Shown one piece after another: positions 747 through 16,965 of a DNA stretch of 64,000 nucleotides. This DNA comes from a virus. Its lineage: Duplodnaviria; Caudoviricetes. The notes beneath the pieces were generated by a model, which worked only from the letters and a program-made list of their open reading frames with translations, did no database searches and was not told the origin of the DNA. The stretch is from the IMG/VR virus record IMGVR_UViG_3300027533_000013, positions 32,001-96,000 of that record; one strand, given 5' to 3'. The position numbers were made by a program, and so were the translations under genes. Positions within the stretch are counted from its first letter, which is position 1. Each line of letters opens with the position of its first letter.

Positions 747-2612
747 ATGCTCAAGTTGATTGGCGACCCGGTCCAGAAATCTGAACACCCCGAGCACAAG
801 ATAACCTTCATCCAGAAGGTGATTAAGGGTGAGACGTGGCTGGTGATGGCACACAGTGCCGTCGAGCTAGAGGACGAATGGTCCAGCCTCTACTTCACGT
901 CAGGCAGTCAGAACAACCTGTTCCTGATGCCGCCTTTCGAGCCGAATGTCTTGCTCAACCTTGTCCAGACCAACAATGTCCTGAACCAGTGCATCGAAGC
1001 GATGGAGGTGAACATCGATGGCACAGGGCATGAATTTGTCCCGGTGGATGAAGGGAAGGACATCGATAAGAAGGAAGAGAAGATCGCCAAGGCGTTCTTT
1101 GATGAGCCGTACCCGAACATCTCCATGGTCACCATCCGGCGCAAGTTGCGGCGGCAGATGGAGTCTGTAGGGTATGGGTTTATTGAAGTGCTTCGGAACA
1201 TGGCCGAGGACGTGGTGGGTCTTCGCAGTGTGGAGACGGCCCACATCCGGATGGTGAAACTAGACAAGCCCATCCAAGTCAAGAAGAAGGTGCAGCGGGA
1301 TGGCACAGAAGTCGAGCTACTGATCTGGGAACGTGAGCGTCGTTTTGCACAGACCGTCGCCCTGAAACAGCAAGTGTACTATCGGGAATTCGGAACCACC
1401 CGTCATATTAACCGTGACACTGGGGATTGGGAAGAAGAAGGCAAGAAGATCCCGCCTGAAAAGCGTGGGTCGGAGTTGCTCTGTCTGGGTATTAACCCCG
1501 ACGTGACCACTCCGTACTGGTTGCCACGATGGATTAACCAGTTACCATCAGTCATTGGCTCCAGAGCCGCCGAGGAACAGAACCTCCAGTTCTTGGATGC
1601 TGGTGGCCTGCCCCCAGCCATTGTGTTCATTCAGGGTGGCACACTCATCAAGGACACGTCCGACCAACTTCGCATGTATTTGTCGGGCCTCAACAAGAAC
1701 AAGAACCGGGCGGTGGTGGTCGAGGTCCAGTCATCGTCAGGTTCACTTGATGCGGCTGGCAAGGTCGATGTGAAGGTGGAGCGTTTCGGTTCTGCCCAGT
1801 CTCAGGATGCGATGTATACCCAGTATGATGAGTCCACTAAGGAGCACATCCGTATTGGCTTCAGACTCCCACCCCTGTTTCTGGGTTATGCGTCAGACTA
1901 CAACTTCGCCACCGCACAAGTGAGCTACATGGTGGCCGAGGCGCAGGTCTTTCTGCCAGAGCGTGCTGAGTTTGACGAGATGATCAACAAGACCATCATG
2001 AAGGAGCTAAAACTCAAGACGCTCCTGTTCAAGTCGAAGCCCATCACGCTGAAGGATGTGGAGACGCAGTTGAAAGCTCTTGAATTGTCGGCGGCACTGG
2101 CCACACGCGAGAGCTACCTGAAGGAAATCAACACAGTCAGTAGCATGGCACTGGAACTGGCTGAAGTGCCTGCTCAGGGTGTTGGTCCCGACAACGTGCC
2201 ACTCAAGAATACGCCTACGGCTGATGAACTGGATTCGGGTAAGTTGCCTGCATCCATGACGGAAGTGAAGCCGGGTGTGAAGCCAGAACCCAAGGAAACC
2301 ATCGAAGAAATGGGGAAGAAGGAAGAAGTCAAGTCCATGGCCCGAGCAAAGGCCAAGGCCATGTATACCTTCAAGGAGCGGAAGGCGGCAGGCGATCTAC
2401 TTGCGTTGACGCAGGACTATGCCATGTATCAGGGTCTGATGCCCACACTGGCACAGAAGCAGGAATTGACCGCTGAGCGTGCTGAGGAAATCAATGCTGA
2501 GGTCGAGTCGTTGCACCCCGAAGACCTGAGAGCGTTTAATAGCTTACTGGCTATGGTGGTGTTTGGGTCCGATGATGCGGACCTGTCGTCCATCGTTGCG
2601 GCGTCGAGGTAA
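747..2612 (+). CDS. phage portal protein (PBSX/XkdE-like)
   Basis: 621 aa; G.G.IEVLRN, YW.PRW, EEQNLQFLDAGG.P, IRIGFRLPPLFLG..DYNFATA motifs typical of portals; first gene of the head module. Confidence 0.9.
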   Translation: MLKLIGDPVQKSEHPEHKITFIQKVIKGETWLVMAHSAVELEDEWSSLYFTSGSQNNLFLMPPFEPNVLLNLVQTNNVLNQCIEAMEVNIDGTGHEFVPVDEGKDIDKKEEKIAKAFFDEPYPNISMVTIRRKLRRQMESVGYGFIEVLRNMAEDVVGLRSVETAHIRMVKLDKPIQVKKKVQRDGTEVELLIWERERRFAQTVALKQQVYYREFGTTRHINRDTGDWEEEGKKIPPEKRGSELLCLGINPDVTTPYWLPRWINQLPSVIGSRAAEEQNLQFLDAGGLPPAIVFIQGGTLIKDTSDQLRMYLSGLNKNKNRAVVVEVQSSSGSLDAAGKVDVKVERFGSAQSQDAMYTQYDESTKEHIRIGFRLPPLFLGYASDYNFATAQVSYMVAEAQVFLPERAEFDEMINKTIMKELKLKTLLFKSKPITLKDVETQLKALELSAALATRESYLKEINTVSSMALELAEVPAQGVGPDNVPLKNTPTADELDSGKLPASMTEVKPGVKPEPKETIEEMGKKEEVKSMARAKAKAMYTFKERKAAGDLLALTQDYAMYQGLMPTLAQKQELTAERAEEINAEVESLHPEDLRAFNSLLAMVVFGSDDADLSSIVAASR

Positions 2613-2614
2613 CC

Positions 2615-3715
2615 ATGGACTACGCCCGTATTCTCAAGTGGAGTCCTAACCAGTTGCGAAACCCCGCAGGGTCACCCGAGGGAGGACGATGGGCGAAGGG
2701 TCTTACCCCACAGGGGGAACGAGATCGATGGCATGGGAAGGATCAGGCGAAGGGTCGGAGACTTGGTACAACTGAGGCTGCTAGGACCATAGAATTTCAG
2801 AGGAATGAAGCTCCCACGTTTCCCAAGGGTACGAGCACTCAGCAACGTGAGTACATTGCAGGGCTGTCTCCGAAGGCGCAGCGACGTATTCGGGACGCTG
2901 AAAATAAAGTCATACAGGATGCAGCACTGGCCGAGATGAAAGCCAATATGGCGGTGTCAAAGTCCCCGCCACTGGATCGGACTCCGTCTGGTGAACACAG
3001 GAATACGCTCAGGACGCCCATCGTAGAACACTCAGAACACACACGGGAGTTGGGCGGCGGCATCAATGAATCCTTGGTGGTGGAAATTGATGGCAAAGAG
3101 TTTGTGTTCAAGCCGGTTGAGGGAGAAAAACATGGCGGGAGTGGTGAGGCGTCACTCGCAGAACGTGAAGTGATCGCATCTCGCATGGATGACGAACTGG
3201 GGTTCGACTTGGTGCCCATGACGGTGATGGGTGAAGTCGAAATCTCGGCCCCTAAATATCCAGAATATGACGAGACGCCTGTGAAAAGGATAGGCTCACT
3301 CCAAGAGTTTCAGGCAGGCGCAAGGAATTATGGCGTGGCGGATGTGAGTGGTCTGTCACGAAAAGATATCGGGAACATGGCGGTGCTCGATGCCCTTCTG
3401 GGAAATACTGACCGGCATACCGGTAATGCCATGGTGAAAGGTAATCAGTTAATTGCCATTGACCATGGTTACACGATGAGTGAAGTACGCGGCACCAACA
3501 GTTTAGCGGTCGATAATCTCAGACGAGATGATTTACCCACGAAATATCAGGGCGAATTAGCGGAGCGCATTGAGAAGATGGATGTAGCCCGTGTGCTTGA
3601 TGGGTCACATATTGGGAAGGCGGAACGAGCGTCCTTTGAGCGCCGGAGAAAAATCGTCATCAACCAGTTGCGTAAGGGAGAAATCCACCTGATTGGTGGA
3701 GCGTTATATGCGTGA
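2615..3715 (+). CDS. PI3/4-kinase/HipA-like kinase effector 1 with N-terminal tag
   Basis: GGGINES, VFKP..GE, REVIA, LGFDLVPMT, GSLQ, DALLGNTDRHTGN, AIDHG; N-terminus YARILKWSPNQLRNPAGSPEGGRW. Confidence 0.8.
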   Translation: MDYARILKWSPNQLRNPAGSPEGGRWAKGLTPQGERDRWHGKDQAKGRRLGTTEAARTIEFQRNEAPTFPKGTSTQQREYIAGLSPKAQRRIRDAENKVIQDAALAEMKANMAVSKSPPLDRTPSGEHRNTLRTPIVEHSEHTRELGGGINESLVVEIDGKEFVFKPVEGEKHGGSGEASLAEREVIASRMDDELGFDLVPMTVMGEVEISAPKYPEYDETPVKRIGSLQEFQAGARNYGVADVSGLSRKDIGNMAVLDALLGNTDRHTGNAMVKGNQLIAIDHGYTMSEVRGTNSLAVDNLRRDDLPTKYQGELAERIEKMDVARVLDGSHIGKAERASFERRRKIVINQLRKGEIHLIGGALYA

Positions 3716-3977
3716 ACTCACCATCTATAACTACAGCATGAAGCCCGAAGAAGTCTTGGGTAAGGTACGGCTGGTGGAGGGTGAAGTCACCATCACTGGA
3801 TTCCCACCACGGATGATGGCCGAGCTACAGGCAGGCATGCCTGATGCGAACACCGGCACCCGCATCATGCCGGATCAGGGCGTGGTGTTTTTCGAAGCGG
3901 TGCTGAATCGGTATACCGGAGCGTATGTCCGAGCCGTGGAGCGGAGCATGGCGGATGTATTGAAGTCCCATGGCTAA
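3708..3977 (+). CDS. putative immunity protein for kinase 1
   Basis: Overlaps the kinase stop; MRELTIYNYSMKPEEVLGKVRLVEG resembles ORFs 8151 and 9623; ends MADVLKSHG. Confidence 0.6.
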   Translation: MRELTIYNYSMKPEEVLGKVRLVEGEVTITGFPPRMMAELQAGMPDANTGTRIMPDQGVVFFEAVLNRYTGAYVRAVERSMADVLKSHG

Positions 3978-4452
3978 ATCCTTCACCGACGTGCTCAAGT
4001 GGGATGAGCATAAGCATCCCAGAGATAAACATGGGTTGTTCACGATGGGGACAGGCCCATTTGGGCACACGCCTGATGACCCCAAAAAAATCGTGCAGGT
4101 CTATGGGCTATCAGACTTTCCAGAGGATGCCCCGCCAGATCCCTTGGAGCCCAAGTATCAGACCGAGGAGAGAGCCGAGCAGGCTGAGCGGCGAAGCCAG
4201 CGAATTCATCTGACCCAAGAAAGTGATCCCAAGCTCCCACCTATGGGGTCGTTGACCACGAATACCGCCGCCAAGCAGCGGGGTATTGAGCGGCGGAAGA
4301 AGCGGAAGGAAAAAGCCGCACGGATGGCCGAAGCCAGACGAAAAGAAGGTGGCGTCGTCGGAGCGAAGCAGAGAGCCCTAGATTTCCGCATGGCGCAAGG
4401 CCGCGCACAGCAGAAAATTATCCGAGCTATCCGAGAGCGTAAAGACGACTAG
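3970..4452 (+). CDS. tagged basic internal head protein, function unknown
   Basis: N-terminus SFTDVLKWDEHKHPRDKHGLF; K/R-rich C-terminus. Confidence 0.6.
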   Translation: MAKSFTDVLKWDEHKHPRDKHGLFTMGTGPFGHTPDDPKKIVQVYGLSDFPEDAPPDPLEPKYQTEERAEQAERRSQRIHLTQESDPKLPPMGSLTTNTAAKQRGIERRKKRKEKAARMAEARRKEGGVVGAKQRALDFRMAQGRAQQKIIRAIRERKDD

Positions 4453-4454
4453 CC

Positions 4455-6092
4455 GTGGCGAAGACTGTAGACCTGAGAACGTATATCGCACTGGAGAGGG
4501 CGTTTCTTAGGCGTCTTCTGCGGACGTGGCGTATTCAGTCGGCTCCCATTTACCAGAAAATCACGCAAGCCTGTCTCGACCATAAATGGGATGAAGCCCG
4601 TCGATTGGTGCCCGATCTGGATATGGCTGAAGTCGGCACGGAAAACAAAGAGTGGATTACCTACATGCTCCTGTCGTGTGGCGTGTTCGGGGCCAACATG
4701 GTGGCGAGAGGTAAACCCTCCTTTGTGGGCGTGGGCACTTTCGATACCTTCCTGAAGCAGACCACCAACAACATGCTCCAGTATCTGGAGCACAACGCCA
4801 CCGCACAGATTCAGAAGGATGCTCTGCAATTGATTGCAGAGGATGAGGCCAAGACCAAAGCCATCAAGTTCGATGAGAGTAAACACCCACGAGATGGTAA
4901 AGGTAGGTTCGCTTACCATGGCACGTCCAATGAGTTGGCCGAGAAGATTCTGAAGGAAGGACTCAAGCCTCTCAGCGAGATGGATCGGAGTTCTCCCATA
5001 GGGAAAGGGTTTGCATCCACGAGTGAGAAAGTGGCGCTGAGTTATGCGGCGATGGCGTCGGATGATTCGGTGGACACTATTACAGTGTTTGTGTTCAAGC
5101 CAGAAGCCAGTCGTTACTTCCAGCCTGCCAACAAGCATGCTTTTGGGCCATCGGGTTCGTGGGCACAAGCGCGTAGCACAGAGATGTCGAGCACAGAGAC
5201 TGTGCCACCGGAATTGATTCACGAGGTGCGTCAGTATCGACTGGCTGATGTGGTCGAGGCACTAGGGCCGCAAGGTGGGAAACAGTATGCAGATTGGGAG
5301 TCTCCACTGGAGGATGTAGATCCAGTGAAGGTGGTCCGAAAAGAAGATCAGGTCATTTATGTGGCCTTTTTGACCACGTCTGGGCCTGTGTTAAAATGGG
5401 ATGCGTCGAAACACCCACGGGAACCCAAGGGAAGCGCCATAGGAGGGCAGTTCACCGAGGGAACCGTGCAGGAGGGTCCGGACTTTACCCGAGTGGCCAT
5501 CACGAGTCAGCGGCCAGAGGGTGATCCGGGGCACCAAGCGAACAAAGAGGTCTTCCAGCACATGCACGAGTTCCAGAGCCGTCTGGAGGCCCTACCGGGG
5601 GTTACCAGAGTCTCTGTGAAGCCGGGAGTCGGTGGGTGGGATGGTGGGTCGGAGTCCATGTGGCAAGTGTTCTACCGGGGCAACGGAGCCGCCAGACGGT
5701 TGGTGGCGCAGACGGCTAAGACGTTCAATCAGGATGCGGTGCTGGTCCTGAAGAAGTGTACGGGCAGTAATTGCCAGCCTGCGGTAGAATTGTCGTTCGC
5801 GGGTGGGGTGTCTCCGGTCGTCAGGGAAAAGGTCCATGCGGTGCTGGTGAAGAACGGCATCCAAGGGTGGACGTGGATGAAGCGGGGCGGAAAGACCCTA
5901 CTCCGGATGGTGTCGGTGCCCCAGTGGGGTGGCGTGGCTGAGAAGCACCAGAAGGCGACAGCCGCCGTCAGTCAGAAGTTACGAGAGGATGGGCTAGAGA
6001 ACCATCGTAGCGTGCATAAAGTGGCCGTATCGGTCATGGAGCGCGAGGGAGACAACAGCTATGACCGAATCATCGGACGAACAGGCACGTAA
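4455..6092 (+). CDS. MuF N-terminal half fused to an ADP-ribosyltransferase-like domain and a possible SAM-lyase-like domain
   Basis: Helical N-terminus; tag AIKFDESKHPRDGKGRF; ART motifs YHGTS..ILKEGLKP..FASTS..ALSYA..VPPELI; second tag VLKWDASKHPREPKGSAIGGQF; third domain GGWDGGSESMWQV..FNQDAVL. Confidence 0.6.
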   Translation: MAKTVDLRTYIALERAFLRRLLRTWRIQSAPIYQKITQACLDHKWDEARRLVPDLDMAEVGTENKEWITYMLLSCGVFGANMVARGKPSFVGVGTFDTFLKQTTNNMLQYLEHNATAQIQKDALQLIAEDEAKTKAIKFDESKHPRDGKGRFAYHGTSNELAEKILKEGLKPLSEMDRSSPIGKGFASTSEKVALSYAAMASDDSVDTITVFVFKPEASRYFQPANKHAFGPSGSWAQARSTEMSSTETVPPELIHEVRQYRLADVVEALGPQGGKQYADWESPLEDVDPVKVVRKEDQVIYVAFLTTSGPVLKWDASKHPREPKGSAIGGQFTEGTVQEGPDFTRVAITSQRPEGDPGHQANKEVFQHMHEFQSRLEALPGVTRVSVKPGVGGWDGGSESMWQVFYRGNGAARRLVAQTAKTFNQDAVLVLKKCTGSNCQPAVELSFAGGVSPVVREKVHAVLVKNGIQGWTWMKRGGKTLLRMVSVPQWGGVAEKHQKATAAVSQKLREDGLENHRSVHKVAVSVMEREGDNSYDRIIGRTGT

Positions 6093-6231
6093 GGAGTTGC
6101 GGGAAGCGTTGGCTCAGGAGCAGGCCACAGGTGAACCAGTGGATGACTCGTGGACCAATGACCTACCCAGTGATCCACTCCCCGAGGATGACGAGGACGT
6201 GTCGGCCACGTTCGTGAAGAAGCATACGTAG
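6061..6231 (+). CDS. small acidic protein (56 aa), candidate immunity/partner
   Basis: MTESSDEQARKELREAL...EDDEDVSATFVKKHT; GAGGGA RBS; overlaps the end of 4455..6092; too short for the ORF track. Confidence 0.5.
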   Translation: MTESSDEQARKELREALAQEQATGEPVDDSWTNDLPSDPLPEDDEDVSATFVKKHT

Positions 6232-6237
6232 GACACC

Positions 6238-8094
6238 ATGCCACCACTTACCCGGCAATTGATTGCAACTATCAAGTCTATGGTGCAGGGCTATGCCCAC
6301 GTCTTGAAGTGGAATCGCAACCAGCCGCGTGGCCCGAAGGGGTCAGCCACGGGTGGGCAGTGGATCAGTCAAGGGAGTCATGGGACCGGAGCGGCCAGCG
6401 CAATCGATGATAAATACGGCACGGCACCGGGGATGGAACGCTACGCCACCCATGGGGATCGTGGCGCAGGCTTTTCCACCATGGATCGAGCACGGGCTAT
6501 CGCAGGCCACACGCGGACACCCGACCCATCCTTCAAGCCTGTTCTGTTGAACGTCAAAGAAGGTGGCCGAGGATTTGTGAATCGTCCTCGTGGAGTGGGT
6601 GTTCCCGAACCACCACCGCCTGATCCACATCAGGAAGTCATTCAGGCCCTGAAGACCGACCGAGCGACAGACAGCCGCCCACTGGGGAATGCAGGCAATG
6701 CGAATGCCTCATGTGTGGTGACGTTGGTGGATGACAAGGGGGAGACCATCGAAGCCGTCTATAAACCCGAACGTGGTGAATCGTGGAGTTTGCGTTTTGC
6801 GAACCATGACATCAAGAAGATGGTCACCAACAAGGACTTTTCGTTGGCGGCTCGTGAAACCTTTGCGTATGAGGTGGATTCGGCACTGAAGCTGGAAATC
6901 GTGCCTGAAACCGTGCTCCGTGAGGTCGTAGACGAAACTAACATCGATATCAACACCAAGGCCAAAGGCGGAATGAACAGTGGTGATGGGCAGGGATACG
7001 ATTCAGACCAAGCCCGAGAGGATTATCGAGACTATCAGGAAAATGCCGAAGAAGACGCCAGAGAAAATGCCTATGAGGAAGCTGGCGACCAGATGGCTGA
7101 CCTATACCATGAGGCACAAAAAGAGCATGTTTCTGATATCCAAGAACGTGCCAAAGAGGTACAGGAAATCTGGGATGAGGAATATGAGGCGTTCAGAGAT
7201 CAGGATGCCCATGGAACACGTTCCGCCATGTTGGAACATCCCACGTTGCCCATGGGGTCTAAGGAACCCTTTGAGCGCAAGCCGGATGAAGGCAAACTGA
7301 ATCCCATCGAGTTTCTGGATGAAGCAAACGTCGATGTCACGGACTCTATGAACGAGGCCGAGGAAAACAAGGTCCGAGAACTTATCCGAGCGAAATTGAA
7401 GGACGGCTACAGCGGGTTCGATGAAGTCGATGAAGATGACGCGGAAGAACATCTGGACCGGGATAAATTCATCGAAGACCATGCGGACACCGAGGCCAGA
7501 ATCATTGACAGTATCGTAGCGAAAAACGTCCAGTCCTATACCGAGTGGCGTCACGACCATGGGTATAACACGTCAGGCACTGCTCCGAGCGGCAGTGGGA
7601 GTGGCAGTGGCCCTGATATGAATCCTGATGCGCCCCATCCTCAAGGGGGGTCGTTTCAGCACTACCGCAGTGATGCACGGAAAGACGGATACCTCAGTGC
7701 CAGTGGTGGAGCCAAGTTGGCGGTGCTGGACTACATGATCGGCACCATGGATCGTCACCCGAACAATTTGATGTACGACGGAACGGAACCTGTGGCTATC
7801 GACAACGGCTACAGTATGCCTGCGGTGCCTGACGGTGATCCGCCCGATGCTTTCACCTTCCGGTCGCATGGCGCGAGGGATTGGGCTAGTTCCGGCACAA
7901 TACCAGACGCCACCCGAACTGAGATACTCGATTCCATGTCGAAGACGAATTGGCAGGCCGTGATGGACCGCCACCCGAACATGAATGCACTGGAGCGGAA
8001 GGCATTTCTGGGCCGTGTCGAGAAGATGAAGACGGCGTTGGGCACTCCGGATGGCCTGAAAAACCTGTGGAGCGGTTTGAACAATATGTGGTAA
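6238..8094 (+). CDS. PI3/4-kinase/HipA-like kinase effector 2 with a large acidic insertion
   Basis: Tag GYAHVLKWNRNQPRGPKGSATGGQW; VYKPERGE, RETFAY, IVPETVLRE, PHPQGGS, LDYMIGTMDRHPNN, AIDNGYS. Confidence 0.8.
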   Translation: MPPLTRQLIATIKSMVQGYAHVLKWNRNQPRGPKGSATGGQWISQGSHGTGAASAIDDKYGTAPGMERYATHGDRGAGFSTMDRARAIAGHTRTPDPSFKPVLLNVKEGGRGFVNRPRGVGVPEPPPPDPHQEVIQALKTDRATDSRPLGNAGNANASCVVTLVDDKGETIEAVYKPERGESWSLRFANHDIKKMVTNKDFSLAARETFAYEVDSALKLEIVPETVLREVVDETNIDINTKAKGGMNSGDGQGYDSDQAREDYRDYQENAEEDARENAYEEAGDQMADLYHEAQKEHVSDIQERAKEVQEIWDEEYEAFRDQDAHGTRSAMLEHPTLPMGSKEPFERKPDEGKLNPIEFLDEANVDVTDSMNEAEENKVRELIRAKLKDGYSGFDEVDEDDAEEHLDRDKFIEDHADTEARIIDSIVAKNVQSYTEWRHDHGYNTSGTAPSGSGSGSGPDMNPDAPHPQGGSFQHYRSDARKDGYLSASGGAKLAVLDYMIGTMDRHPNNLMYDGTEPVAIDNGYSMPAVPDGDPPDAFTFRSHGARDWASSGTIPDATRTEILDSMSKTNWQAVMDRHPNMNALERKAFLGRVEKMKTALGTPDGLKNLWSGLNNMW

Positions 8095-8100
8095 CAGTAA

Positions 8101-8129
8101 TTGACAAATTGTTCAAATTGTGATACAGT
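8101..8129 (+). promoter_or_regulatory. sigma70-like promoter for the putative immunity gene 8151
   Basis: TTGACA-17-TACAGT with TG extended -10. Confidence 0.7.
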
Positions 8130-8150
8130 AATGGGTGGAGGATTCTAGTT

Positions 8151-8378
8151 ATGCACACCGAGATTTGGGATCATACGGGGGGAAGGTCGAGGGTGATGGC
8201 CATCGTCCGAGTGGATGGTGGAAAGCTCTCGATTGAAGAAAAAGAACCCATGCCGCCATCCTATCACAAGATGATCGAGATGACGCAGGCACGGATGCAC
8301 GGAGAACGAGCGTTTCTACGGCAGTTGGAAGTGGAATTTTCGGGGTCATACATCACGGCGACGTTCAAGAAAGACTGA
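8151..8378 (+). CDS. putative immunity protein for kinase 2
   Basis: GGAGG RBS; MHTEIWDHTGGRSRVMAIVRVDGGKL...FSGSYITA resembles ORFs 3708 and 9623. Confidence 0.6.
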   Translation: MHTEIWDHTGGRSRVMAIVRVDGGKLSIEEKEPMPPSYHKMIEMTQARMHGERAFLRQLEVEFSGSYITATFKKD

Positions 8379-8380
8379 CC

Positions 8381-9583
8381 ATGCTGATCTTCCAGCGGAA
8401 GCCTGTGCAATCAATTGCATACGTCTCCATCCTGAAGTGGGATCGGAACCAGCCCCGTGTCCCGAAAGGGTCACCAGAGAGTGGACGATGGACGCAGGGT
8501 GGTGTCAGTCAGGGTCTCGCCGCCACCACCATGGCCGGTCGAACGCCCAGAACGTCTACGTTCAAGCCGCCTGAGTATGGCTTTGGCAGTACGGAAGATC
8601 GTCGGATGGAAGCAGATAGGGCAAAAGCCGCAGGGTTTGCCACGATCATGAACGCCCCCATGGGCACGGGGTTTGCGAACCCACCACGTATCACCGGGCA
8701 ATCTTCGATGGTGAGGCGGTTGACGACGCCATCGAAAGCCCCGGTAGTATCGGCGGCACCAACTGGTTCGTCATTGAATTCGATGAGGACTGGCAACATC
8801 GCAGATTCTGAGGAAATCAATCCGGGGACACACGCCAATGAAACGTACAAAGTGACGTTGGAGGATGGGACCGTTGCCGCATTGAAGGCTGAATCAGGTG
8901 AACGCTGGGCCGCAGCCTTTTGGAATGACGATATTTCAAACTACGTCATCAACCGGGATCTGTCGCTGGGTGAGAGAGAAGCCATTGCCTTTGAAGTCTC
9001 AGAGGCGTTAGGACTGGATCTGGTGCCGGAGACGGTCCTCCGAGAACACATTGATGTTGTTAGTACCGGGCAACCTTTTGAGGGAGTGAACATCATGAAT
9101 GATGAGGCACCCCATCCACATGGAGGTAGTCTCACGAAGTGGGTGCCGGGTATTGATTCCGATGGTCAGAAAGCGACTCCACAAGAAATCCGAAGACTGG
9201 CAGTATTGGATTACGCTATGGGGCAGATGGATCGGCATCCCAACAATGTGTCCTTCGACGCTAATGGCAAGCTCCTCGCCATGGACAATGGTTACAGTCT
9301 TCCGGCTCCCATCTATGGTCATGATGAATTCACTTTCCGGTCGGCCACCACAAGAACGTGGAGGGAGTCAGCTAGTGACGACTTTCCAGAGGATGAACGG
9401 AAGCAAATGGCCGATGCGTTAGATAGGACGGACTGGACAGCGTTTGCTGATCGTCATTCGGGCATGAGCAGTCGAGAACGTGAAGCGTTTTTGGGTCGCA
9501 TTGAGAATCTGAAAGAAGCCATGAAGACCACCACGGGCTTGAAGGAACTGTGGAAGAACCAGACCCTGTATATGGACAATTGA
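8381..9583 (+). CDS. PI3/4-kinase/HipA-like kinase effector 3
   Basis: Tag AYVSILKWDRNQPRVPKGSPESGRW; ALKAESGE, REAIAF, LVPETVLRE, LDYAMGQMDRHPNN, AMDNGYS; close paralog of 6238..8094. Confidence 0.8.
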   Translation: MLIFQRKPVQSIAYVSILKWDRNQPRVPKGSPESGRWTQGGVSQGLAATTMAGRTPRTSTFKPPEYGFGSTEDRRMEADRAKAAGFATIMNAPMGTGFANPPRITGQSSMVRRLTTPSKAPVVSAAPTGSSLNSMRTGNIADSEEINPGTHANETYKVTLEDGTVAALKAESGERWAAAFWNDDISNYVINRDLSLGEREAIAFEVSEALGLDLVPETVLREHIDVVSTGQPFEGVNIMNDEAPHPHGGSLTKWVPGIDSDGQKATPQEIRRLAVLDYAMGQMDRHPNNVSFDANGKLLAMDNGYSLPAPIYGHDEFTFRSATTRTWRESASDDFPEDERKQMADALDRTDWTAFADRHSGMSSREREAFLGRIENLKEAMKTTTGLKELWKNQTLYMDN

Positions 9584-9601
9584 CAAATTATCTGATAGAC
9601 T
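9573..9601 (+). promoter_or_regulatory. sigma70-like promoter for the putative immunity gene 9623
   Basis: TGGACA-17-TAGACT with TG extension; a TTGACA also lies at 9580. Confidence 0.55.
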
Positions 9602-9622
9602 ACAGGGGCATGGAGGTGCTAG

Positions 9623-9868
9623 TTGTACGCAGAACTTATCAATTATTCGATGGACCCGCCTAAAGTGATCCGGACCATCCGGATCGTGGATGGGAAGCTC
9701 GTCCAGACGGGTGACATGTCTCCGGAGAAGAGACGGCATCTGGAGCAGGAATATCATCTGTTCAAGACCAAGCTGAACGGCAGCGATAAGGATTTCTTGG
9801 AGAATCGGTTGGACGTGGTATTTGCGAGTAACACGTATTACAAGCCGAAGTTTCACCCCGAGGAGTAA
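9623..9868 (+). CDS. putative immunity protein for kinase 3
   Basis: GGAGG RBS, TTG start; MYAELINYSMDPPKVIRTIRIVDGKL resembles ORF 3708. Confidence 0.6.
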   Translation: MYAELINYSMDPPKVIRTIRIVDGKLVQTGDMSPEKRRHLEQEYHLFKTKLNGSDKDFLENRLDVVFASNTYYKPKFHPEE

Positions 9869-9873
9869 TACCC

Positions 9874-11649
9874 GTGCTGCAATCGATTGCAGGATATGCG
9901 GCGGTGCTGAAGGGTGGCACCTATAGCTATGGGAATACCCAGATCCCTATTGCTCCTACCAGTGCAGCCGCGCTTAGTCTGAACATGGCCCGAGACGCCA
10001 TTCAGGATGACCATCTGGAGGGCGCAGGAAAGGACGTGGACCCCAACCACGTCACGGTGCGGTATGGCCTGTTGAACGAGAACCTCGACGCCCTGAGAGC
10101 CTTTCTTGCCAGTCAGAAGCCTTTTGAGGCGCGAGTCGAGGGGGTGGAGTTATTCCCTGCCTCAGAACACTCGGATGGAGCCGTGCCCGTGGTGGCGAGG
10201 ATCGTGTCACCCGAGTTGCACGCTATCGAGGCTGAGATTGGAAATTACGCAGATTTCAAGGAAAAGAGCTTCCCGGTTTACAAACCGCACTGCACATTGG
10301 CGTATTGTAAACCGGAGATTGCCGAGCGGTATCAAGAACTATTTGTCTATGGTTCGTTTGTGGTGCAGAGCATCACCATCAGCCATGCGTCAGGTGTGCA
10401 GGAAACCATCCCGTTCGGTATAACGAATAAGTTCGATGTAACGAAGAAAGATCCGGTCAGCGGACGTTATGTCACGCCGTTTGTGTCGTTCGATAAGCAA
10501 GGCGATGAGCAGCTACGTATGATTACCAGTCTCAACGCCAGCCGCTTGGCGACGTGGGGATTTACGGCTGAGGCCGAAGTGCTGGGGATGGCCCGGTATC
10601 GTCTGACCGCCGTGCTCGATGGTCGGACCAGTAAGTTCTGCCGCATGATTGATGGCCATATTTTTGATGTGGCTGATGCGCGTGAGAAGGTGATTGAAGC
10701 CCTGAACGTGCAAGACCCCAACGACCTTCGCGTCGTCCAACCATGGCCCAAGCAGGACAAAGCATCGATGGCCATGTACAGCGAGATGAATGCCCAAGAA
10801 CTGACTGACCGAGGGCTACACATCCCACCCTACCACCCGCACTGCCGCACGTTGTGCCGGTCGGTGGAGTCGAGCAAGGGGAAGACCACCGAGGTCACGG
10901 CCACGGTGCCTGATGGGACTGAGGTCTTTCAGCCTGTCACAGCGGCTGACCTAGCGGAGATCGGTGTGACAGCGACTCCTGAACAGGTGGCCGAGTGGAA
11001 CGCCAACATCGGCATGTCTCCGGTCGAGTTGATGACCAAGCTCACTGGAGGGCGTCCCCAAGAGGTGATGACACGAGGCGTTGGTTCGAAGCCGGTGGAG
11101 TTTCATCCCTCTGGGGATATCGGACTGAACGCCCGAGGGGTCACGGATGGGGTGGAATTCAAGCTGGGGGCGATACTGGACCCATTCACGGGTATCTTCT
11201 ACTTGACCCGTGCGGAGTTGGCTGAGGGCACGCCAAAGGCCGAGGCCGCGTTCCTGAAGCGTATGTTCAGTGCCATGCTGGACATGGGGAAGAAGTCCAC
11301 GGCATCCTCGATTGCGCTCAGCGTGGCCGGTAATGCGGCATACTACGCCAAGCTGGGATTTCTGCCTGACGAGTTGGAATGGGATGCTCTGCGGACGTAT
11401 TCACTGGGAGAGTTGGAAGCAGGAGTGTTGCAGCCGATGATGGCATCGCTGGCCCCGGCTGATGCGTTGCTGGTGAAGCAGCTACTACAAGATGGGTCAC
11501 CATCGGCCTTAGTTGCTCTGACCGAGCTACCGTTCACCTACGCAGGCAAGACCATCGGTGAGTGGATTCTCAGTGAGTCGTCAGGTATTTGGGCACTGGA
11601 TCTGGCCGATGATTTGATGGTAGCGCAGGCGAAAGCGTACCTCTCATGA
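9874..11649 (+). CDS. 2H phosphoesterase (Acb1-like) + MuF/SPP1 gp7 C-terminal half + GNAT-like domain
   Basis: Two HxT motifs (HVTVRYG at 10048, PHCTLAY at 10285); MuF motifs AVLDGRTSKFCRMIDG and PPYHPHCRT; C-terminal AAYYAKLGF. Confidence 0.75.
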   Translation: MLQSIAGYAAVLKGGTYSYGNTQIPIAPTSAAALSLNMARDAIQDDHLEGAGKDVDPNHVTVRYGLLNENLDALRAFLASQKPFEARVEGVELFPASEHSDGAVPVVARIVSPELHAIEAEIGNYADFKEKSFPVYKPHCTLAYCKPEIAERYQELFVYGSFVVQSITISHASGVQETIPFGITNKFDVTKKDPVSGRYVTPFVSFDKQGDEQLRMITSLNASRLATWGFTAEAEVLGMARYRLTAVLDGRTSKFCRMIDGHIFDVADAREKVIEALNVQDPNDLRVVQPWPKQDKASMAMYSEMNAQELTDRGLHIPPYHPHCRTLCRSVESSKGKTTEVTATVPDGTEVFQPVTAADLAEIGVTATPEQVAEWNANIGMSPVELMTKLTGGRPQEVMTRGVGSKPVEFHPSGDIGLNARGVTDGVEFKLGAILDPFTGIFYLTRAELAEGTPKAEAAFLKRMFSAMLDMGKKSTASSIALSVAGNAAYYAKLGFLPDELEWDALRTYSLGELEAGVLQPMMASLAPADALLVKQLLQDGSPSALVALTELPFTYAGKTIGEWILSESSGIWALDLADDLMVAQAKAYLS

Positions 11650-11792
11650 AGATGACCTTGAAACCGCTCAAGACAGACCATGCCACGCTAAAAATGGTGG
11701 TGTCGAAGCCTGTACCGAAGGCCAAGGCCCATCTCCAGTTGGTGACCAGACAGGGTGTGTCATCGGAACGAGCGAAGCAGTTACTGAGCTAG
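11646..11792 (+). CDS. small basic hypothetical protein (48 aa)
   Basis: ATGA overlap with 9874..11649; MKMTLKPLK...AKQLLS. Confidence 0.35.
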   Translation: MKMTLKPLKTDHATLKMVVSKPVPKAKAHLQLVTRQGVSSERAKQLLS

Positions 11793-11871
11793 GAAAATAG
11801 TTGTTGCGTTCTTGCGTTGTCCTGTAAAATAAGACCCCGTGCAACTGATTGCAATTGTGAGTCAGTAACCC

Positions 11872-12978
11872 ATGCCCCTGCATACGAGTCGATTCGTGTC
11901 CCGGTATGGACTCACACATGCCGCAGAGCCATCCAAACCCAAACTCCCCTTTGAATTAGTCCTGAAGTTCAACAAGTGCCACGCAGACAATTCCGGCCAA
12001 TTCTGTGACACGAGTGGTGGCACAGGTGGTAAAGAAAGTGGCGGCATAGGCGGTAAAGAAAAAGAGACTGCGAACTTCAAGAAAACTGTCCCGAAGGACG
12101 GTGAATATCCGGTAGGCACAGAACAAGACCCCATCATCAGGGCGTCAGTGAAACGTCGGTACATGGCGGGGGAAATTGAACTGGCCGACGAGCAAAAAGA
12201 ATTCTTTGGGATCGGGCCGGAAGTGAAGTTCAATTCCAAAGCGGCCAAGGTGACGAAACCCTCCGCGAAGCCATCCGACGTGAAGTCTGAGGACGGGCCG
12301 ACGCAAGTGTTCTTGGATGCCAGTACGCCGGAAGGTATCACCACGGCGCTGAAGGCCATGGGATGGAAAGATAAGAGCAAGGTTACGAACCGTGACGAAC
12401 TTTTCAAAATCGCGGAAAACAATGGGAAGATTGCGGAGAAAGGGCGTAAGCTCATTCTTGAGGCGTTGGAAAGTAGCCCCCGTGGGAAGGGAAAGGTCAA
12501 GGTAACGAAGGCGAGTGGGATTGATCAGAAGACGGCGGATAAGCTACAAGCCAACGTCAATCTCTTGCTGCACCCGACCATCCTGAAGCAGTTGAAGTCC
12601 AAGAGTACGAATCTGACGAGGGGCAGGTCGAGTGGAGATGCCCATTACTCACATTCTATTGAGGGTCAGATTACGTTTGGGCATGGGATGAATAAAAACG
12701 ATCAAGAAGCAATCTATGTTCATGAATTCGGGCATAGAATTGAAGTGTCAGTCAAAGGGTTGTTGGCGAAGGCAACCAAGGCCCGAGACAAAGCCGTCAG
12801 TGAGAACGAACCGTTGGTCAATGAATACTCCGAGAAAGTGTACGAGCATATTAAGGGCACAGAATATGTGTCGTCTGGATACGAGCACTACTTCCGCGAT
12901 CCCATTTCCTTTGCCGCCAAAGCCCCGAAACATTTTACGTTCATTCATCGGCTGGTGACGCGAGGGGAGTTGGTATAA
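11872..12978 (+). CDS. tagged zincin-like metallopeptidase effector
   Basis: Tag FELVLKFNKCHADNSGQFC; HEFGH at 12721 and downstream EYVSSGYEHYF. Confidence 0.7.
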   Translation: MPLHTSRFVSRYGLTHAAEPSKPKLPFELVLKFNKCHADNSGQFCDTSGGTGGKESGGIGGKEKETANFKKTVPKDGEYPVGTEQDPIIRASVKRRYMAGEIELADEQKEFFGIGPEVKFNSKAAKVTKPSAKPSDVKSEDGPTQVFLDASTPEGITTALKAMGWKDKSKVTNRDELFKIAENNGKIAEKGRKLILEALESSPRGKGKVKVTKASGIDQKTADKLQANVNLLLHPTILKQLKSKSTNLTRGRSSGDAHYSHSIEGQITFGHGMNKNDQEAIYVHEFGHRIEVSVKGLLAKATKARDKAVSENEPLVNEYSEKVYEHIKGTEYVSSGYEHYFRDPISFAAKAPKHFTFIHRLVTRGELV

Positions 12979-13244
12979 TGCAGGCGGTTATTAAGGTCGA
13001 GGGTGTCGAGGCGACATTCGATGGAGAGCGATGGGAGTGTCCCGATGCGACGTTAGCGGCGTTCCTGAATGCGTTTCGGTGGATGGGTTCTCGCCATAGC
13101 CAGTATGGTAGTGCTGGAAGCCATGCGGTGGCGGTGGCTGAAGAAATAGGAGCCGAAGTCGTTTCGGTGGAAGATACACCCACGGATAATGTCGATATCG
13201 TGAAGGGGTTGGGGGAGTCCGACGATGAGTCGGATGAGGAGTAG
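12978..13244 (+). CDS. small acidic protein, candidate immunity for the metallopeptidase
   Basis: TAATG overlap with the peptidase gene; 88 aa, acidic. Confidence 0.5.
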   Translation: MQAVIKVEGVEATFDGERWECPDATLAAFLNAFRWMGSRHSQYGSAGSHAVAVAEEIGAEVVSVEDTPTDNVDIVKGLGESDDESDEE

Positions 13245-13248
13245 TTTG

Positions 13249-14064
13249 ATGGCCATTGACACTCGCAAATCGCTGGTCAAGAAATACAATCCCAACCACG
13301 GAGTTGATGGGCGGTTTACATCAGGGTCCAGTGGGCTAGGAAACCGTCGTATTGGAGAGCGTGGCGGTGGCACCGCAGGGGCACCTGTGAAGGATGCGTT
13401 TGGCAGGTCGATGGGTTACCAAAGCCCCCATCCTCCAACGAAACAGACAGTAGCCGCCCACAGTCCACAGGCACAGCAAACCGCAGCCCACCTTCATGGC
13501 GCGTCAGACGGTGGTTCGGGTATCGTCAAAGATCGCGTCTTCATTCCCGGTGTGACGGATGAATTTGGGAGAACGGCTGAGGAACAAGCGGCAGCAAAGG
13601 TACCCAAGTTTCAGATTGAGAATCCGGCTGGACCGGGTTTTCAGTTCAGTAGCGCACAGCGACAGGCGAACGCTAGAGAGATGTTCGGAGCATCACCGTT
13701 GAAGCCAGATCCTTATGGTGAGACCGCCAGAAAACCAAACATTTTGGTGAGACCAGAACCGGCTGCGTTTGCGACCACGATGCGAACACCTAAGACGCCT
13801 GTGATGGCTGAGACGGCTCGCACACCAGCGACCACCAGACATGCCCCCAAAGAGGCCACGTTTCATGCGCCGTCCAAGGACATCAACGAGTATGTGAATA
13901 CTCAGCACATGAGGCGACTGGAAGGTGAATCATTGAGTGCGTATGTGGAGCGCCGAAACTCGTTGTTGAAAACTCAACGTGATCGTGAGGCGAAAGTAGC
14001 GAAGGCGAGAGCGAACGCCAGTGCTCCATTTCTCAGGGGACGGCCACCAGCATTCGTGAGGTAA
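13249..14064 (+). CDS. tagged low-complexity internal head protein
   Basis: GAGGAG RBS; SLVKKYNPNHGVDGRFTSG tag; Pro/Ala/Thr-rich. Confidence 0.6.
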   Translation: MAIDTRKSLVKKYNPNHGVDGRFTSGSSGLGNRRIGERGGGTAGAPVKDAFGRSMGYQSPHPPTKQTVAAHSPQAQQTAAHLHGASDGGSGIVKDRVFIPGVTDEFGRTAEEQAAAKVPKFQIENPAGPGFQFSSAQRQANAREMFGASPLKPDPYGETARKPNILVRPEPAAFATTMRTPKTPVMAETARTPATTRHAPKEATFHAPSKDINEYVNTQHMRRLEGESLSAYVERRNSLLKTQRDREAKVAKARANASAPFLRGRPPAFVR

Positions 14065-14068
14065 CCTT

Positions 14069-14344
14069 ATGCCGCTCACGAACGGGTTGTTGACGAGTCG
14101 TGCGGCTGCTCTGAAGGGTGAGGGCCATATTCACTCGGAGAAGTGGCATCGCTGTGTGGAGCACGTCAAGGCCAAGGGTGGTGGATACGATCCGTACGCC
14201 GTCTGCACCTTCAGCATTGGGTACAATGAGTCGGTCAACAAGGAACATCAGACGCCGGGGCCACATTCTTCACGAGACACCCGCAGATTCAAGCGGCGGA
14301 AAGAGCGTGCTGAAAAGTATGCCGACGTATTGAAATTCAAATAA
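14069..14344 (+). CDS. small basic protein (CxxxV..PYAVC) ending KYADVLKFK
   Basis: GAGG RBS; carries the YADVLK half of the tag at its C-terminus. Confidence 0.55.
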   Translation: MPLTNGLLTSRAAALKGEGHIHSEKWHRCVEHVKAKGGGYDPYAVCTFSIGYNESVNKEHQTPGPHSSRDTRRFKRRKERAEKYADVLKFK

Positions 14345-14364
14345 CCCAGCAATAGGAGCACACC

Positions 14365-14604: not shown

Positions 14605-14620
14605 GGAAATTCTCCTGACG

Positions 14621-14657: not shown

Positions 14658-14673
14658 CTGATTGGGGTGTAGA

Positions 14674-15207
14674 ATGTCCTTGGTACTGAAGTCCGAAGAA
14701 CAGCACATTGTCATGGGCGTTGCTCCGGGCTATTGGGTGTCGAATGATGGCCGAGTGTGGTCCACACGTCCATTGAACGGGCAGGGGCCATTATTGCCGT
14801 GGGAACAGCGCCGAGAGATGAAACCGATTGTTCAGCACAATCAATATCGAACGGTGGTGATTGATAGAAAGACCGTGGCAGTTCATGCACTTGTACTAAC
14901 GGCGTTTGTAGGCCCACGACCAGCCGGGAAGCAATGTCGCCATTTGGATGGTGACAAGTCGAATAACCGGCGAGACAATTTGATCTGGGGTACTTGTGTT
15001 GAGCAGTCAGAAGATCGGGCCAAACACGGCACTAAGTTAGTAGGGTCGAAGATAGGCACGGCGAAGTTGACTGAAGCGCAAGTGAAAGAAGCGCGGAGTA
15101 TGCGACCCACTTTTCCGCTTGATTACATTGCCAAGAAATTTGGAGTGACTAAGACCTGTATTTGGCATGCTGTTTCTGGTTCCGGCTCCAATTGGAGACA
15201 CGTATGA
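14674..15207 (+). mobile_element. HNH homing endonuclease (NUMOD4/HNH type) fused to the former 5' end of the prohead protease gene
   Basis: YWVSNDGRVWS, VHALVLTAFVGPRP, CRHLDGDKSNNRRDNLIWGT, AKLTE; N-terminus MSLVLKSEEQHIVMG resembles the protease start. Confidence 0.85.
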
Positions 15208-15794
15208 ACCGAAAACTCGTAATCAAACAGGACGGTGAACTTCAGATAGCGATGGGCGAAGTTTACGCCCCCAACCGTCCTGATGCACAGGGTGAGTACA
15301 TGACGGTGGTGGAAATTCGGAAAATGGCCCATGAGTTTATCCGCTCTGGTAAGATGAAGCAGATCGACTTGATGCACGGTAATAAGATTGTTGAGGGCGC
15401 GAGTGTTGTAGAGTCGTTCGTCTCGGACGCATCCGACACACGGTTCCTACCTGATTCATGGGTGATTGGTGTTCATATCCCCGACCCAACTTTGTGGTCG
15501 TCCATCAAGAAGGGCGAAATCAACGGTTTCAGCATGGAAGCTCTCGTGTCCCGACACGATACGGATGTGGAGATTGAAATTCCTCCGGTCGTGTCAGGGT
15601 TGACCAGTAAGGGTGATGACGGTCATGAGCATAAATTCTTCGTCACCTATGACGAAAAGGGACAGTTCAAGGGTGGATTGACGGATGTGGTCAATGGCCA
15701 TTCGCATACCATCGTGGCGGGGACGCATACCCAAGACAGTCAAGGTCATCGCCATCGATTTAGTTCTGTTGATAACGTCCGAATCTTGAGGTAG
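15204..15794 (+). CDS. XkdF-like prohead serine protease
   Basis: GEVYAPNRPDAQGEYMT..EIRKMAHEF..IDLMH, VVESFV, W..IKKGEINGFSME; His-rich C-terminus (HEH, HSH, HRH). Confidence 0.85.
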   Translation: MNRKLVIKQDGELQIAMGEVYAPNRPDAQGEYMTVVEIRKMAHEFIRSGKMKQIDLMHGNKIVEGASVVESFVSDASDTRFLPDSWVIGVHIPDPTLWSSIKKGEINGFSMEALVSRHDTDVEIEIPPVVSGLTSKGDDGHEHKFFVTYDEKGQFKGGLTDVVNGHSHTIVAGTHTQDSQGHRHRFSSVDNVRILR

Positions 15795-15798
15795 GATC

Positions 15799-16965
15799 AT
15801 GCCGATTTTTCGGACCAAGTTGAAACAGTTGCGTGATGCGGATGTGCGGTTTATTTCGTTGGTAGATCGAGCCGCCACACGTATTCCGTTCCGAGTGTTG
15901 AAGCGTGAGAAGGAGAACGAGATGGGTATTGATCTGACGCGAGTATTCAAGTCGGACGGAAAAGAGGTGGCGAAGCCTTTTGTGTCGGCAATCGTGGTCT
16001 TCGCCCAGAAAAACGAGGACGCCGCGAAACAAGTGCGGGACGCCATCGAGAAGCACGGGTTCCGCATTGATCGCGTTCAGAAAGCCGATGGCGACGAGAC
16101 GCTGGTCTTCGCCCAGACGGATGCTCCGAAAGAAGTCCAGCTTGTGCGACTGAGCGATCAGTCGTTGGTATCCGTCGCCAACTTTCAGATTCCCTCGGGA
16201 TGGATGGGTGACCAGATCGAGGAGCACGGGTTCTTCCCCGATCTGAAGCTGGCCACTCAGAATCTGTACGACGAGATGCTGAAGGTTGCCAAGTCGGACA
16301 CACCACAGGACCATGCTCAGGCCGCGTTGACCAGCTACGCCCAGTACATGGAGCAGATGATCACGCTCCCGGTGGAAGCGTTCCAGTTGGACGAGGCCAT
16401 TGCTGAAATCGTCAAGAAGTGCTCCTGCGAAGACAAGAAAGAGGACGAGGAGCCGGTGAAGGAAGACGTGAAGACGGAAGACGTGGTCAAGGCCGACAAA
16501 AAGAGTCCCAAGTTGCCGCCGAAACTGGCCGGTGAGTCGGAGGCCGAGAGGAAGAAGCGTCTCAAGTCCCATCCGCCGTCTGAGATGGCTCCGGCTGATG
16601 AGGAAGATGACCAGAAGGGTCCACCGGAAGAAGCCAGCCCCGAAGAGGATGAAACCAAGAAGGCTGACACCGGCATTCAGGACATTCTCGGCGCGTTGAA
16701 GGCACTGAACGATAGCACCACGGCGCAGTTCACCACGCTGACGACCAAGTTGGAAGGTGTCGTCACCGAACAGGCCAGCCAGAAGAAAGTGCTTGACGAC
16801 GTGGTACAGAAAGCTGACACTTTGGGAGCGACGTTGAAGGGTACGGTGGTTGCCCCCGTTGTCTCCGAAGATCGCCCCGCAGGACCAGCCCGTATGCGGG
16901 TGCAGAAGGACGATGATCCTCGGACGGGCAATTTCGACACCGCGTTTCTGCGTCGTCGTCGGTAA
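15799..16965 (+). CDS. capsid scaffolding protein
   Basis: Lies between protease and MCP; N-terminal VRFISLVDRAA motif; acidic coiled-coil; many VxKAD/VxKSD sites. Confidence 0.7.
   Translation: MPIFRTKLKQLRDADVRFISLVDRAATRIPFRVLKREKENEMGIDLTRVFKSDGKEVAKPFVSAIVVFAQKNEDAAKQVRDAIEKHGFRIDRVQKADGDETLVFAQTDAPKEVQLVRLSDQSLVSVANFQIPSGWMGDQIEEHGFFPDLKLATQNLYDEMLKVAKSDTPQDHAQAALTSYAQYMEQMITLPVEAFQLDEAIAEIVKKCSCEDKKEDEEPVKEDVKTEDVVKADKKSPKLPPKLAGESEAERKKRLKSHPPSEMAPADEEDDQKGPPEEASPEEDETKKADTGIQDILGALKALNDSTTAQFTTLTTKLEGVVTEQASQKKVLDDVVQKADTLGATLKGTVVAPVVSEDRPAGPARMRVQKDDDPRTGNFDTAFLRRRR

Follow-up and report, generated by a model that had tools for sequence, protein, structure and literature searches.

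The internal proteins IPI-III and Alt of phage T4 carry a capsid-targeting sequence of about 10 N-terminal residues that is removed by gp21, and encapsulins, shells of the HK97 fold, take up cargo through loading peptides that are usually C-terminal and have a consensus different from the one described here. The polyvalent proteins of phages have been proposed to be processed via built-in zincin peptidases (Iyer, Burroughs, Anand, de Souza, Aravind 2017, PMC5512222). Pre-toxin motifs of polymorphic toxins (VENN of CdiA, DPxGL of Rhs, and PT-TG) coincide with recombination breakpoints and processing (Zhang et al. 2012, PMC3482391), and in MuF polymorphic toxins, a MuF anchor is combined with toxin domains that vary, the small genes nearby being possible immunity genes (Jamet et al. 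2017, PMC5576092). Here, we analyze a bipartite peptide tag encoded in a 64,000-nucleotide stretch of DNA (the window), which covers bases 32001–96000 of the 119.7-kb IMG/VR virus record IMGVR_UViG_3300027533_000013, rated complete, from an uncultured phage whose capsid gene shows 73% nucleotide (nt) identity with the major capsid gene of Stenotrophomonas phage DLP5. The first half of the tag is [YF]xx[VI]LK, and the second half has the consensus [WF]-[DE]-[EP]-x-[KQ]-[HQ]-P-R-x3(8)-G-x-[FW]. In our favored reading, to which we assign a probability of about 0.45, the tag is the joint of a capsid-cargo module that is cut between the Lys and the Trp or Phe by the XkdF-type protease, the second half being the N-terminal leader of the freed module. 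The second half probably serves capsid-carried proteins as a boundary and leader signal that has not been described before. What is new is the joint; the class of locus, head-packaged polyvalent effectors, is already known.

The resemblance to polyvalent proteins extends to the domain repertoire (ART-PolyVal, 2H, MuF, zincin, PBECR, LPD, topoisomerase IB, and Zeta), to the site beside the portal, MuF, and terminase, and to the proposed fate, packing in the head and injection. A junction motif of this kind was not found in the main text of PMC5512222. The array is located between the portal (747–2612) and the protease and capsid genes (15204–17948). At least two effector domains share a polypeptide at 4455–6092 (N-domain, ART-like module, and C-domain) and at 9874–11649 (2H, MuF, and C-terminal region), and the domains match PF13563 and PF04233, with PARP and ATLF matches under the Pfam cut-off. 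Unlike the polyvalent proteins, most modules are encoded by separate genes, each with its own tag, rather than by one giant protein. The array could accordingly be described as a polyvalent protein arsenal that is mostly split into separate genes and whose modules would be effectors packaged in the head. It comprises the three PI3/4-kinase-like enzymes, the ART-like module, the 2H phosphoesterase, MuF, the zincin, and proteins without an assigned function.

Like the tag, the T4 signal is a short N-terminal peptide on unrelated proteins inside the head (a location that is presumed here) and ends at a presumed prohead-protease site. There is, however, no sequence likeness, the motif here ending in [VI]LK compared with MKTYQEFIAE and a Glu-specific cut site in T4. 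The T4 signal is removed whole, whereas the conserved part of the tag follows the presumed cut and would remain on the cargo. The distributions differ as well, that of the T4 signal being limited to a lineage and that of the second half spanning many phyla. By analogy, the encapsulin peptides are likewise short, unstructured terminal peptides on a flexible linker that mark cargo for the shell interior, but the tag differs from them in consensus and in its position N-terminal to the modules.

A tag confined to the head module

The genes of the window considered here are encoded on the + strand and are listed below, with a slash marking the joint between the two halves of the tag.

747..2612, +: portal protein, 621 amino acids (aa), untagged (phrog_12 portal, E 4e-22; weak Phage_portal match in Pfam); upstream border of the cargo array
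2615..3715, +: PI3/4-kinase-like kinase 1 (PF00454, E 5e-9); N-terminal tag YARILK/WSPNQLRNPAGSPEGGRW at 2621–2692 (first half 2621–2638, second half 2639–2692)
3693..3977, +: small 94-aa open reading frame (ORF) with the C-terminus MADVLKSHG before the stop (3948–3977), the first half only; no match in family searches
3970..4452, +: 160-aa protein, basic in its C-terminal part; N-terminal tag FTDVLK/WDEHKHPRDKHGLF at 3982–4041, the closest to the consensus (profile score 41.6 bits)
4455..6092, +: polyprotein, 545 aa, with a helical N-domain, tag 1 (AIK/FDESKHPRDGKGRF, 4860–4910), an ART/PARP-like module (weak PARP match), tag 2 (PVLK/WDASKHPREPKGSAIGGQF, 5385–5453), and a C-domain, as modeled with AlphaFold2 (AF2)
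6238..8094, +: PI3/4-kinase-like kinase 2 (PF00454, E 1e-7); tag YAHVLK/WNRNQPRGPKGSATGGQW at 6292–6363
8381..9583, +: PI3/4-kinase-like kinase 3 (PF00454, E 1.5e-5), paralogue of kinases 1 and 2; tag YVSILK/WDRNQPRVPKGSPESGRW at 8420–8491
9874..11649, +: 2H phosphoesterase (PF13563, E 1.5e-9), MuF (SPP1 gp7-like; PF04233, E 5.6e-5; TIGR01641), and C-terminal region; YAAVLK, a first half without second half, at the N-terminus (9895–9912), and the degenerate tag NK/FDVTKKDPVSGRY (10426–10470) between the 2H and MuF parts
11872..12978, +: zincin-like metallopeptidase (HEFGH) with weak resemblance to the anthrax lethal factor domain family (PF07737, E 4e-3, under the Pfam cut-off); NPxH-type variant tag FELVLK/FNKCHADNSGQF at 11950–12003
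13225..14064, +: 279-aa protein without known family (Pfam search, translation); NPxH-type variant tag SLVKK/YNPNHGVDGRF at 13270–13317
14069..14344, +: Cys/His-rich 91-aa domain with the end YADVLKFK before the stop (14318–14344), a truncated junction by comparison with relatives
15204..15794, +: XkdF-type prohead serine protease (Peptidase_S78_2; PF14550, E 3e-22; homologues ~196 aa)
15799..16965, +: scaffold-like protein, named by position and composition; no match in family searches
17007..17948, +: major capsid protein, 313 aa, without first-half motif (identified by nt identity to DLP5); downstream border of the head module

Several small ORFs are also present between the portal and the protease. 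All ten instances listed in the initial annotation translate exactly as given there, and the first half alone indeed forms the end of two small ORFs (3693..3977 and 14069..14344). The bearers had been called unrelated; this does not apply to the three kinases, which are paralogues of one another. In a six-frame regular-expression scan of the whole 119.7-kb genome, the combined motif was found only at 2.6–13.3 kb of the window, between the portal and the prohead protease, and always in the coding frame of + strand ORFs. An equal frequency of the motif in non-virion proteins would have spoken against the initial reading, but the rest of the genome is free of it.

Forty-two loci of related phages were retrieved with the portal as the query. 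A profile built from the instances gave 112 matches at E<0.01 in these loci and the window, all on the + strand and 0 on the - strand, and all downstream of the portal gene, both at N-termini and within polyproteins of up to 1746 aa; relatives with portal identity of 54% or less had zero or one tag. This strand bias, together with the confinement to coding frames, indicates that the combined motif is not a chance occurrence. In eight genes between the portal and the protease, the first half falls within the first 32 residues, and in this clade, as few as 7–13 residues may precede the Lys. Over 45 nt, the tags of this genome are 24–78% identical (median ~40%), showing that the peptide, and not the DNA, is what is conserved. 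Among non-paralogous tag pairs, nt identity tracks amino acid identity with no excess, and DNA-level repeats were rejected as the main cause of the similarity on these grounds.

Tags at domain boundaries

The polyprotein at 4455–6092 had been described as carrying the tag at each domain boundary, and both of its tags proved to be located between folded parts, at points where homology with relatives breaks. The helical N-domain (aa 1–136) corresponds to the N-terminal part of a MuF-type head protein, and its helix ends at aa 136 in the AF2 model; tag 2 is modeled with a predicted local distance difference test score (pLDDT) of 31–36, and the C-domain, a double ferredoxin-like domain (aa 345–540), with a pLDDT of 80–95 from aa 345 onward. 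The 35 homologues of this protein share the N-domain and then diverge, with different modules behind it. Their high-scoring segment pairs end at query positions 150–164, just past tag 1, or begin at 312–319, just ahead of tag 2. One homologue (P0078) aligns exactly from tag 1 to tag 2, and in another (P0115), the N-domain is joined to the C-domain at ..TKA/VLKWDAS.. and the ART module is absent, a natural deletion that joins tag 1 to tag 2. The double ferredoxin-like (ACT-like) domain (window 5487–6092) starts with FT.V.ITSQRP and recurs in relatives, either within polyproteins or as a tagged gene of its own. Its matches to the SAM lyase family of phages and to the corresponding structure are weak.

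These breakpoints, the P0115 deletion, the different modules behind the same N-domain, and the unusual uniformity of the junction inside one protein are also what would be expected if the tag were a recombination joint only, that is, a conserved linker for in-frame module swapping with no biochemical role. We consider this very unlikely, given that the nt identity of the tags, with no excess over amino acid identity, gives no sign of selection on the DNA itself and that the amino acid core is kept across phyla with differing codons, such that a degenerate pattern is needed to find it, which points to selection on the peptide.

The tag also shares with the pre-toxin motifs the character of a short conserved delimiter of exchangeable cassettes, at which homology breaks as it does at the ends of the segment pairs and at the P0115 joint. 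It differs from them in sequence, in being repeated before every domain and not only the last, in its mainly phage-head context, and in having no Pfam model. The PT-VENN, PT-TG, and PT-HINT families were absent from the window proteins and from the top 25 families of the 79 motif-bearing ORFs discussed below. The arrangement may be akin to that of the MuF polymorphic toxins, with a MuF domain, variable putative effector domains, and small ORFs after the kinases as possible immunity genes. MuF is N-terminal in those toxins and in the middle of the protein here, and the MuF gene seems to be interrupted by 5.5 kb of inserted tagged modules. A junction motif was not found in Jamet et al. 2017 (PMC5576092). 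In DLP5, the N-domain, MuF, and ParB are contiguous in one protein (L167 1892–3232), compared with an N-domain at 4455–4860 and MuF at 10470–11100 in the window. This arrangement suggests that ~5.5 kb of tagged modules entered an ancestral MuF head gene and divided it.

A widespread second half and a clade-specific first half

Profile A2, built from 77 clade instances, matched 136 proteins at E<=0.01, with up to seven copies each, in a set of 5.8 billion proteins. The matched proteins carry ART-PolyVal, MuF, 2H, ADPrib_exo_Tox, topoisomerase IB, GNAT, Zeta toxin, and portal domains, and motif-bearing homologues carry PF18760, PF03496, PF01028, and PF06414. Among 1.84 billion representatives, 1146 clusters were matched at E<=1e-3 and 232 at E<=1e-10. 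The largest copy numbers were 20 in one 7334-aa protein and 17 in one 5313-aa protein. Across 234 measured proteins, the median spacing between copies is 244 aa, half of the proteins have their first copy within the first 40 aa, and in 95%, the last copy has 136 aa or more behind it; thus, the peptide heads domains and never trails them at the C-terminus.

A search of a one-genome-per-species collection with an exact degenerate DNA pattern for WDEx[KQ]HPRxxxGxF, which picks up intact motifs only, yielded 81 protein matches in 75 stretches, compared with a chance expectation of ~0.5 matches (4.5e-13 per position). The taxa include Desulfovibrio, Neisseria, Mannheimia, Acinetobacter, Microbacterium, Frankia, Clostridia, Melainabacteria, Planctomycetes, Elusimicrobia, Bacteroidetes, a candidate-phylum bin, and an archaeal bin; at least 103 stretches in IMG/VR also contain the pattern. 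For a motif-bearing bin labeled E. coli, a counterpart was sought in complete E. coli genomes and none was found. Searches using tblastn with 22–25-aa motif queries gave 8, 4, and 1 weak records in phage and plasmid collections, too insensitive a result for judging distribution, and uncovered three fusions of portal, tag, and effector (see below). Pfam, NCBIfam, and PHROG searches returned no model covering the tag peptide, a profile search of PDB sequences returned no solved chain with the motif, and literature searches (motif strings, and the main text of papers on polyvalent proteins, MuF toxins, polymorphic toxins, and NAD-ADPr) returned no publication naming it.

Many prophage ORFs with the pattern start with M, MS, MT, or MAN followed at once by WDE.KHPR, that is, M(x0-2)WDE. 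A Gly-rich stretch usually comes next after the motif, and AF2 modeling of the motif alone gave no secondary structure (mean pLDDT 68). The native starts, combined with the length of protein beyond the last copy, support the proposal that the second half is the N-terminal leader of the downstream module. The further proposal of a DNA-binding leader finds no evidence in its direction, the motif being near-neutral in charge.

A relative (L018) has the variant NPYHDxxG[RK]FT at domain boundaries, and the window instances at 11968 and 13285 are of this NPxH type (NP[YN]H[DG]xxG[RK]F), a divergent variant to which the degenerate instance at 10426 was also assigned; the core common to the variants is [RH]-D-x-x-G-x-[FWY]. 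A 57-aa ORF between the protease and scaffold genes of DLP5 (gp004, L167 3883–4053) starts with MSDDAKVQKANPYRGAGGKF, another leader variant of the NPxH type; this weak variant is all that DLP5, the closest isolate, carries. Two of the three variants contain [DN]-P-x-[HQ] (FDPNQPR and NPYHD), which recalls the self-cleaving N/PTH loop of FlhB/YscU and the GD/PH site of mucins, and self-cleavage of the motif would account for its independence from the protease family. This resemblance is limited to the variants, however: the commonest one, WDExKHPR, lacks the [DN]-P bond, the tag is predicted to be unstructured whereas the known self-cleaving loops are within folded domains, and genes that start with M-WDE need no cut. 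Self-cleavage therefore appears extremely unlikely.

The first half has a different distribution. In what follows, P and P' denote the sides before and after the presumed cut. A Lys precedes the aromatic residue in 61 of the 77 clade instances, compared with 4 of 75 elsewhere, where the preceding residue is Glu, Asp, Gly, Ala, or the start Met. Other phages have uniform upstream residues of their own, for example, [VI]ADAE/ five times in L180, and positions P4 to about P15' show raised sameness within a protein, which drops outside this range. Head-module ORFs contain the string [VI]LK 12 times in 4546 aa, compared with 19 times in 29265 aa elsewhere, a density four times as high. The N-terminus of the protease, MNRKLVIK/QDGE, is similar to the first half, as are those of the relatives' proteases (LV[IL]K, then S/Q and an acidic residue). 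The scaffold-like protein contains the conserved IPFRVLK/REKE at aa 29–39 (15883–15915), with the first-half-like motif at aa 31–35, and a corresponding motif is present in L018 and in phage DLP5 (FRITK/SDKE). The domain encoded at 14069–14344 ends with ..[VI]LKF[KT] and a stop in four lineages but is extended by a full tag and a further module in L138 and L152, so that this ORF is an upstream domain that retained its side of the joint.

The view of the whole bipartite peptide as one conserved unit is not supported, given that the second half alone is widespread and the first half is clade-specific. These comparisons of sequences support two separable halves that meet at K/[WF], a true module boundary, with the first half staying with the upstream part.

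The protein context of the second half is mostly that of the phage head. The 79 motif-bearing ORFs include 14 portals of the Phage_portal_3 family, in which the tag comes behind an acidic C-tail, and the other families include PBECR1 (9), LPD3 (6), and DUF2213 (4), along with Zeta, ART, topoisomerase IB, and peptidoglycan hydrolase domains; the DUF2213 literature does not state whether DUF2213 is a protease. MuF is the commonest neighbor (14 of 119), and terminase, portal, and cement proteins are also present. As a universal partner of the motif, MuF is not supported: within short 8-kb stretches, it was found in only 18 of 75 loci, and it bears a degenerate tag itself. In three records of phage collections (two isolates and one prophage sequence), a portal fusion is followed by MuF:

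Pseudomonas phage Orimi01: portal-tag-ART fusion
Xanthomonas phage PhiXhv-5: portal-tag-effector fusion
Helicobacter prophage: portal-tag-LPD3 fusion

Elsewhere, tags are found behind lambda-type and Mu-type portals, behind MuF, and flanking S78 and S78_2 proteases, one of which is fused to a capsid protein. In total, the leader accompanies at least four portal families and two protease families.

An alternative reading of this context is that the second half is a docking peptide that is not cut, a capsid-loading signal that, like the loading peptides of encapsulins or the T4 capsid-targeting sequence, binds a head component (the scaffold, the capsid interior, the portal, or MuF), with the polyproteins staying whole. 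The N-terminal, unstructured tag with a flexible linker behind it, its restriction to head modules, and its retention by separate genes that need no separating cut are all compatible with docking; by hand reading, adherence to the [YF]xx[VI]LK form also seemed tighter for N-terminal tags (~11 of 16) than for internal tags (~3 of 13). Yet modules fused to portal, MuF, or protease-capsid anchors are still tagged before every domain, where one loading signal would do, and the head proteins vary among the bearers, with no evident conserved receptor. Uncut effectors fused to the portal would be unable to exit the head, and proteins of 5000–7000 aa with 17–20 tags would be hard to eject whole. On balance, we regard docking without cleavage as unlikely.

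Contexts outside phages are few (10 of the 79 ORFs). Eight Rhs/YD-shell proteins of the Desulfovibrio group (Desulfovibrio and Nitratidesulfovibrio) have the leader directly after the DPxGL self-cleavage site; the Rhs leader loci are L051, L058, L069, L072, L088, L092, L101, L104, and L125, with Pesticin-like, NlpC/P60, and other C-terminal toxins downstream. Two Microbacterium AbiEii nucleotidyltransferase toxins start with the leader (L052 589–1080 and L056 6230–7183) in a context with no evident capsid, and one of them has an AbiEi-type gene upstream.

The leader could instead act after delivery, in the target cell, by binding a universally conserved bacterial factor or by leading the threading or refolding of each unfolded module. 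Such a role would explain why the leader is conserved across phyla irrespective of the head proteins. It is consistent with the near-invariant core in Proteobacteria, Firmicutes, Actinobacteria, Planctomycetes, candidate phyla, and the archaeal bin, with the leader on Rhs C-terminal toxins and AbiEii toxins, and with its presence alongside at least four portal families. However, some of the tagged domains are peptidoglycan hydrolases (Pesticin-like, NlpC/P60, M23, and GH108), which act outside the cytoplasm; the non-phage cases are few, as counted with a pattern that takes intact motifs only; and the search of PDB sequences returned no solved structure with the motif. We judge a post-delivery role quite improbable.

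Proposed processing and delivery of the modules

In the favored reading, that of a joint cut by the XkdF-type protease, the P side would be the recognition site of this protease and may double as a procapsid-targeting signal, and the P' side would be the widespread unstructured leader of the downstream module, acting at or near a free N-terminus. Cargo would enter the procapsid either fused to an anchor (the MuF N-domain here, the portal or protease elsewhere) or via the N-terminal peptide; the protease would cut behind the Lys, and each module would be released with its N-terminal leader and exit with the DNA. An effector fused to the portal must be cut free before it can leave the head. We favor this reading because the halves are separable, because genes natively start at the aromatic residue, because tags precede every domain even in portal-anchored fusions, and because first-half-like motifs are present on the protease and the scaffold-like protein. 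What the sequences show is the motif itself, where it occurs, and that its halves separate; cleavage at K/W or K/F, packaging, ejection, and any binding by the leader are inferred.

Several observations weigh against this scheme. Given that the leader occurs alongside no fewer than four families of portals and two of proteases, a single virion receptor or a single protease recognizing the P' side is hard to picture, and the Rhs toxins of the Desulfovibrio group and the two Microbacterium AbiEii toxins have the leader in contexts without a capsid. A general link between S78_2-type proteases and Lys at P1 was sought and not found outside the clade, so that the connection between the protease and the P side derives from this clade alone. 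The raised sameness within proteins also includes variable P' positions, and gene conversion or duplication could explain a uniform P side without selection by the protease. Finally, not all relatives have a tag before most domains: L028 has one copy, and the portal-adjacent MuF protein of DLP5 has none.

Other genes of the locus are of interest in their own right. A 79-aa Pro/Gly-rich ORF (14365–14604; repeated GLPG.PGG..GPG) is located between the truncated domain at 14069 and an endonuclease gene, and L018 has a Thr/Pro-rich ORF in the equivalent place. The HNH/NUMOD4 endonuclease ORF (14662–15239) starts with MSLVLKSEEQHIVMG, matching the N-termini of the relatives' protease genes, and the true protease gene restarts after it with MNRKLVIKQDGELQIAMG. 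These sequences suggest that a homing endonuclease gene has entered the 5' end of the protease gene, where the target end is now duplicated and diverged; an Rfam search of window positions 1–20000 returned no RNA family, group I introns included. Small ORFs of 75–94 aa lie beside the kinase genes, at 8151–8378 (after kinase 2) and 9623–9868 (after kinase 3), and also at 3693–3977 and 12978–13244. Those at 8151–8378 and 9623–9868 have homologues in the same position in relatives, with a shared terminal FSG[ST]Y..A.F motif, and gave no match in a family search. The small ORFs beside the kinases may be their immunity or chaperone partners.

With respect to locus evolution, the tag appears to be the point at which modules are gained, lost, or turned into genes of their own. 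A more far-reaching possibility, which we consider doubtful, is that tailed phages share WDEx[KQ]HPRx3GxF as a portable, near-universal signal that is alone sufficient for capsid loading, processing, and delivery of any domain; if so, presence of the motif would identify the injected proteome of uncultured phages by sequence alone. Phage proteins that are injected with the DNA, such as anti-defense enzymes, host-takeover factors, and toxins, are hard to spot by sequence. A peptide that heads each module would provide a marker for this injected proteome, along with exact domain boundaries in giant polyvalent proteins, and would offer a candidate handle by which foreign proteins might be brought into the phage head.

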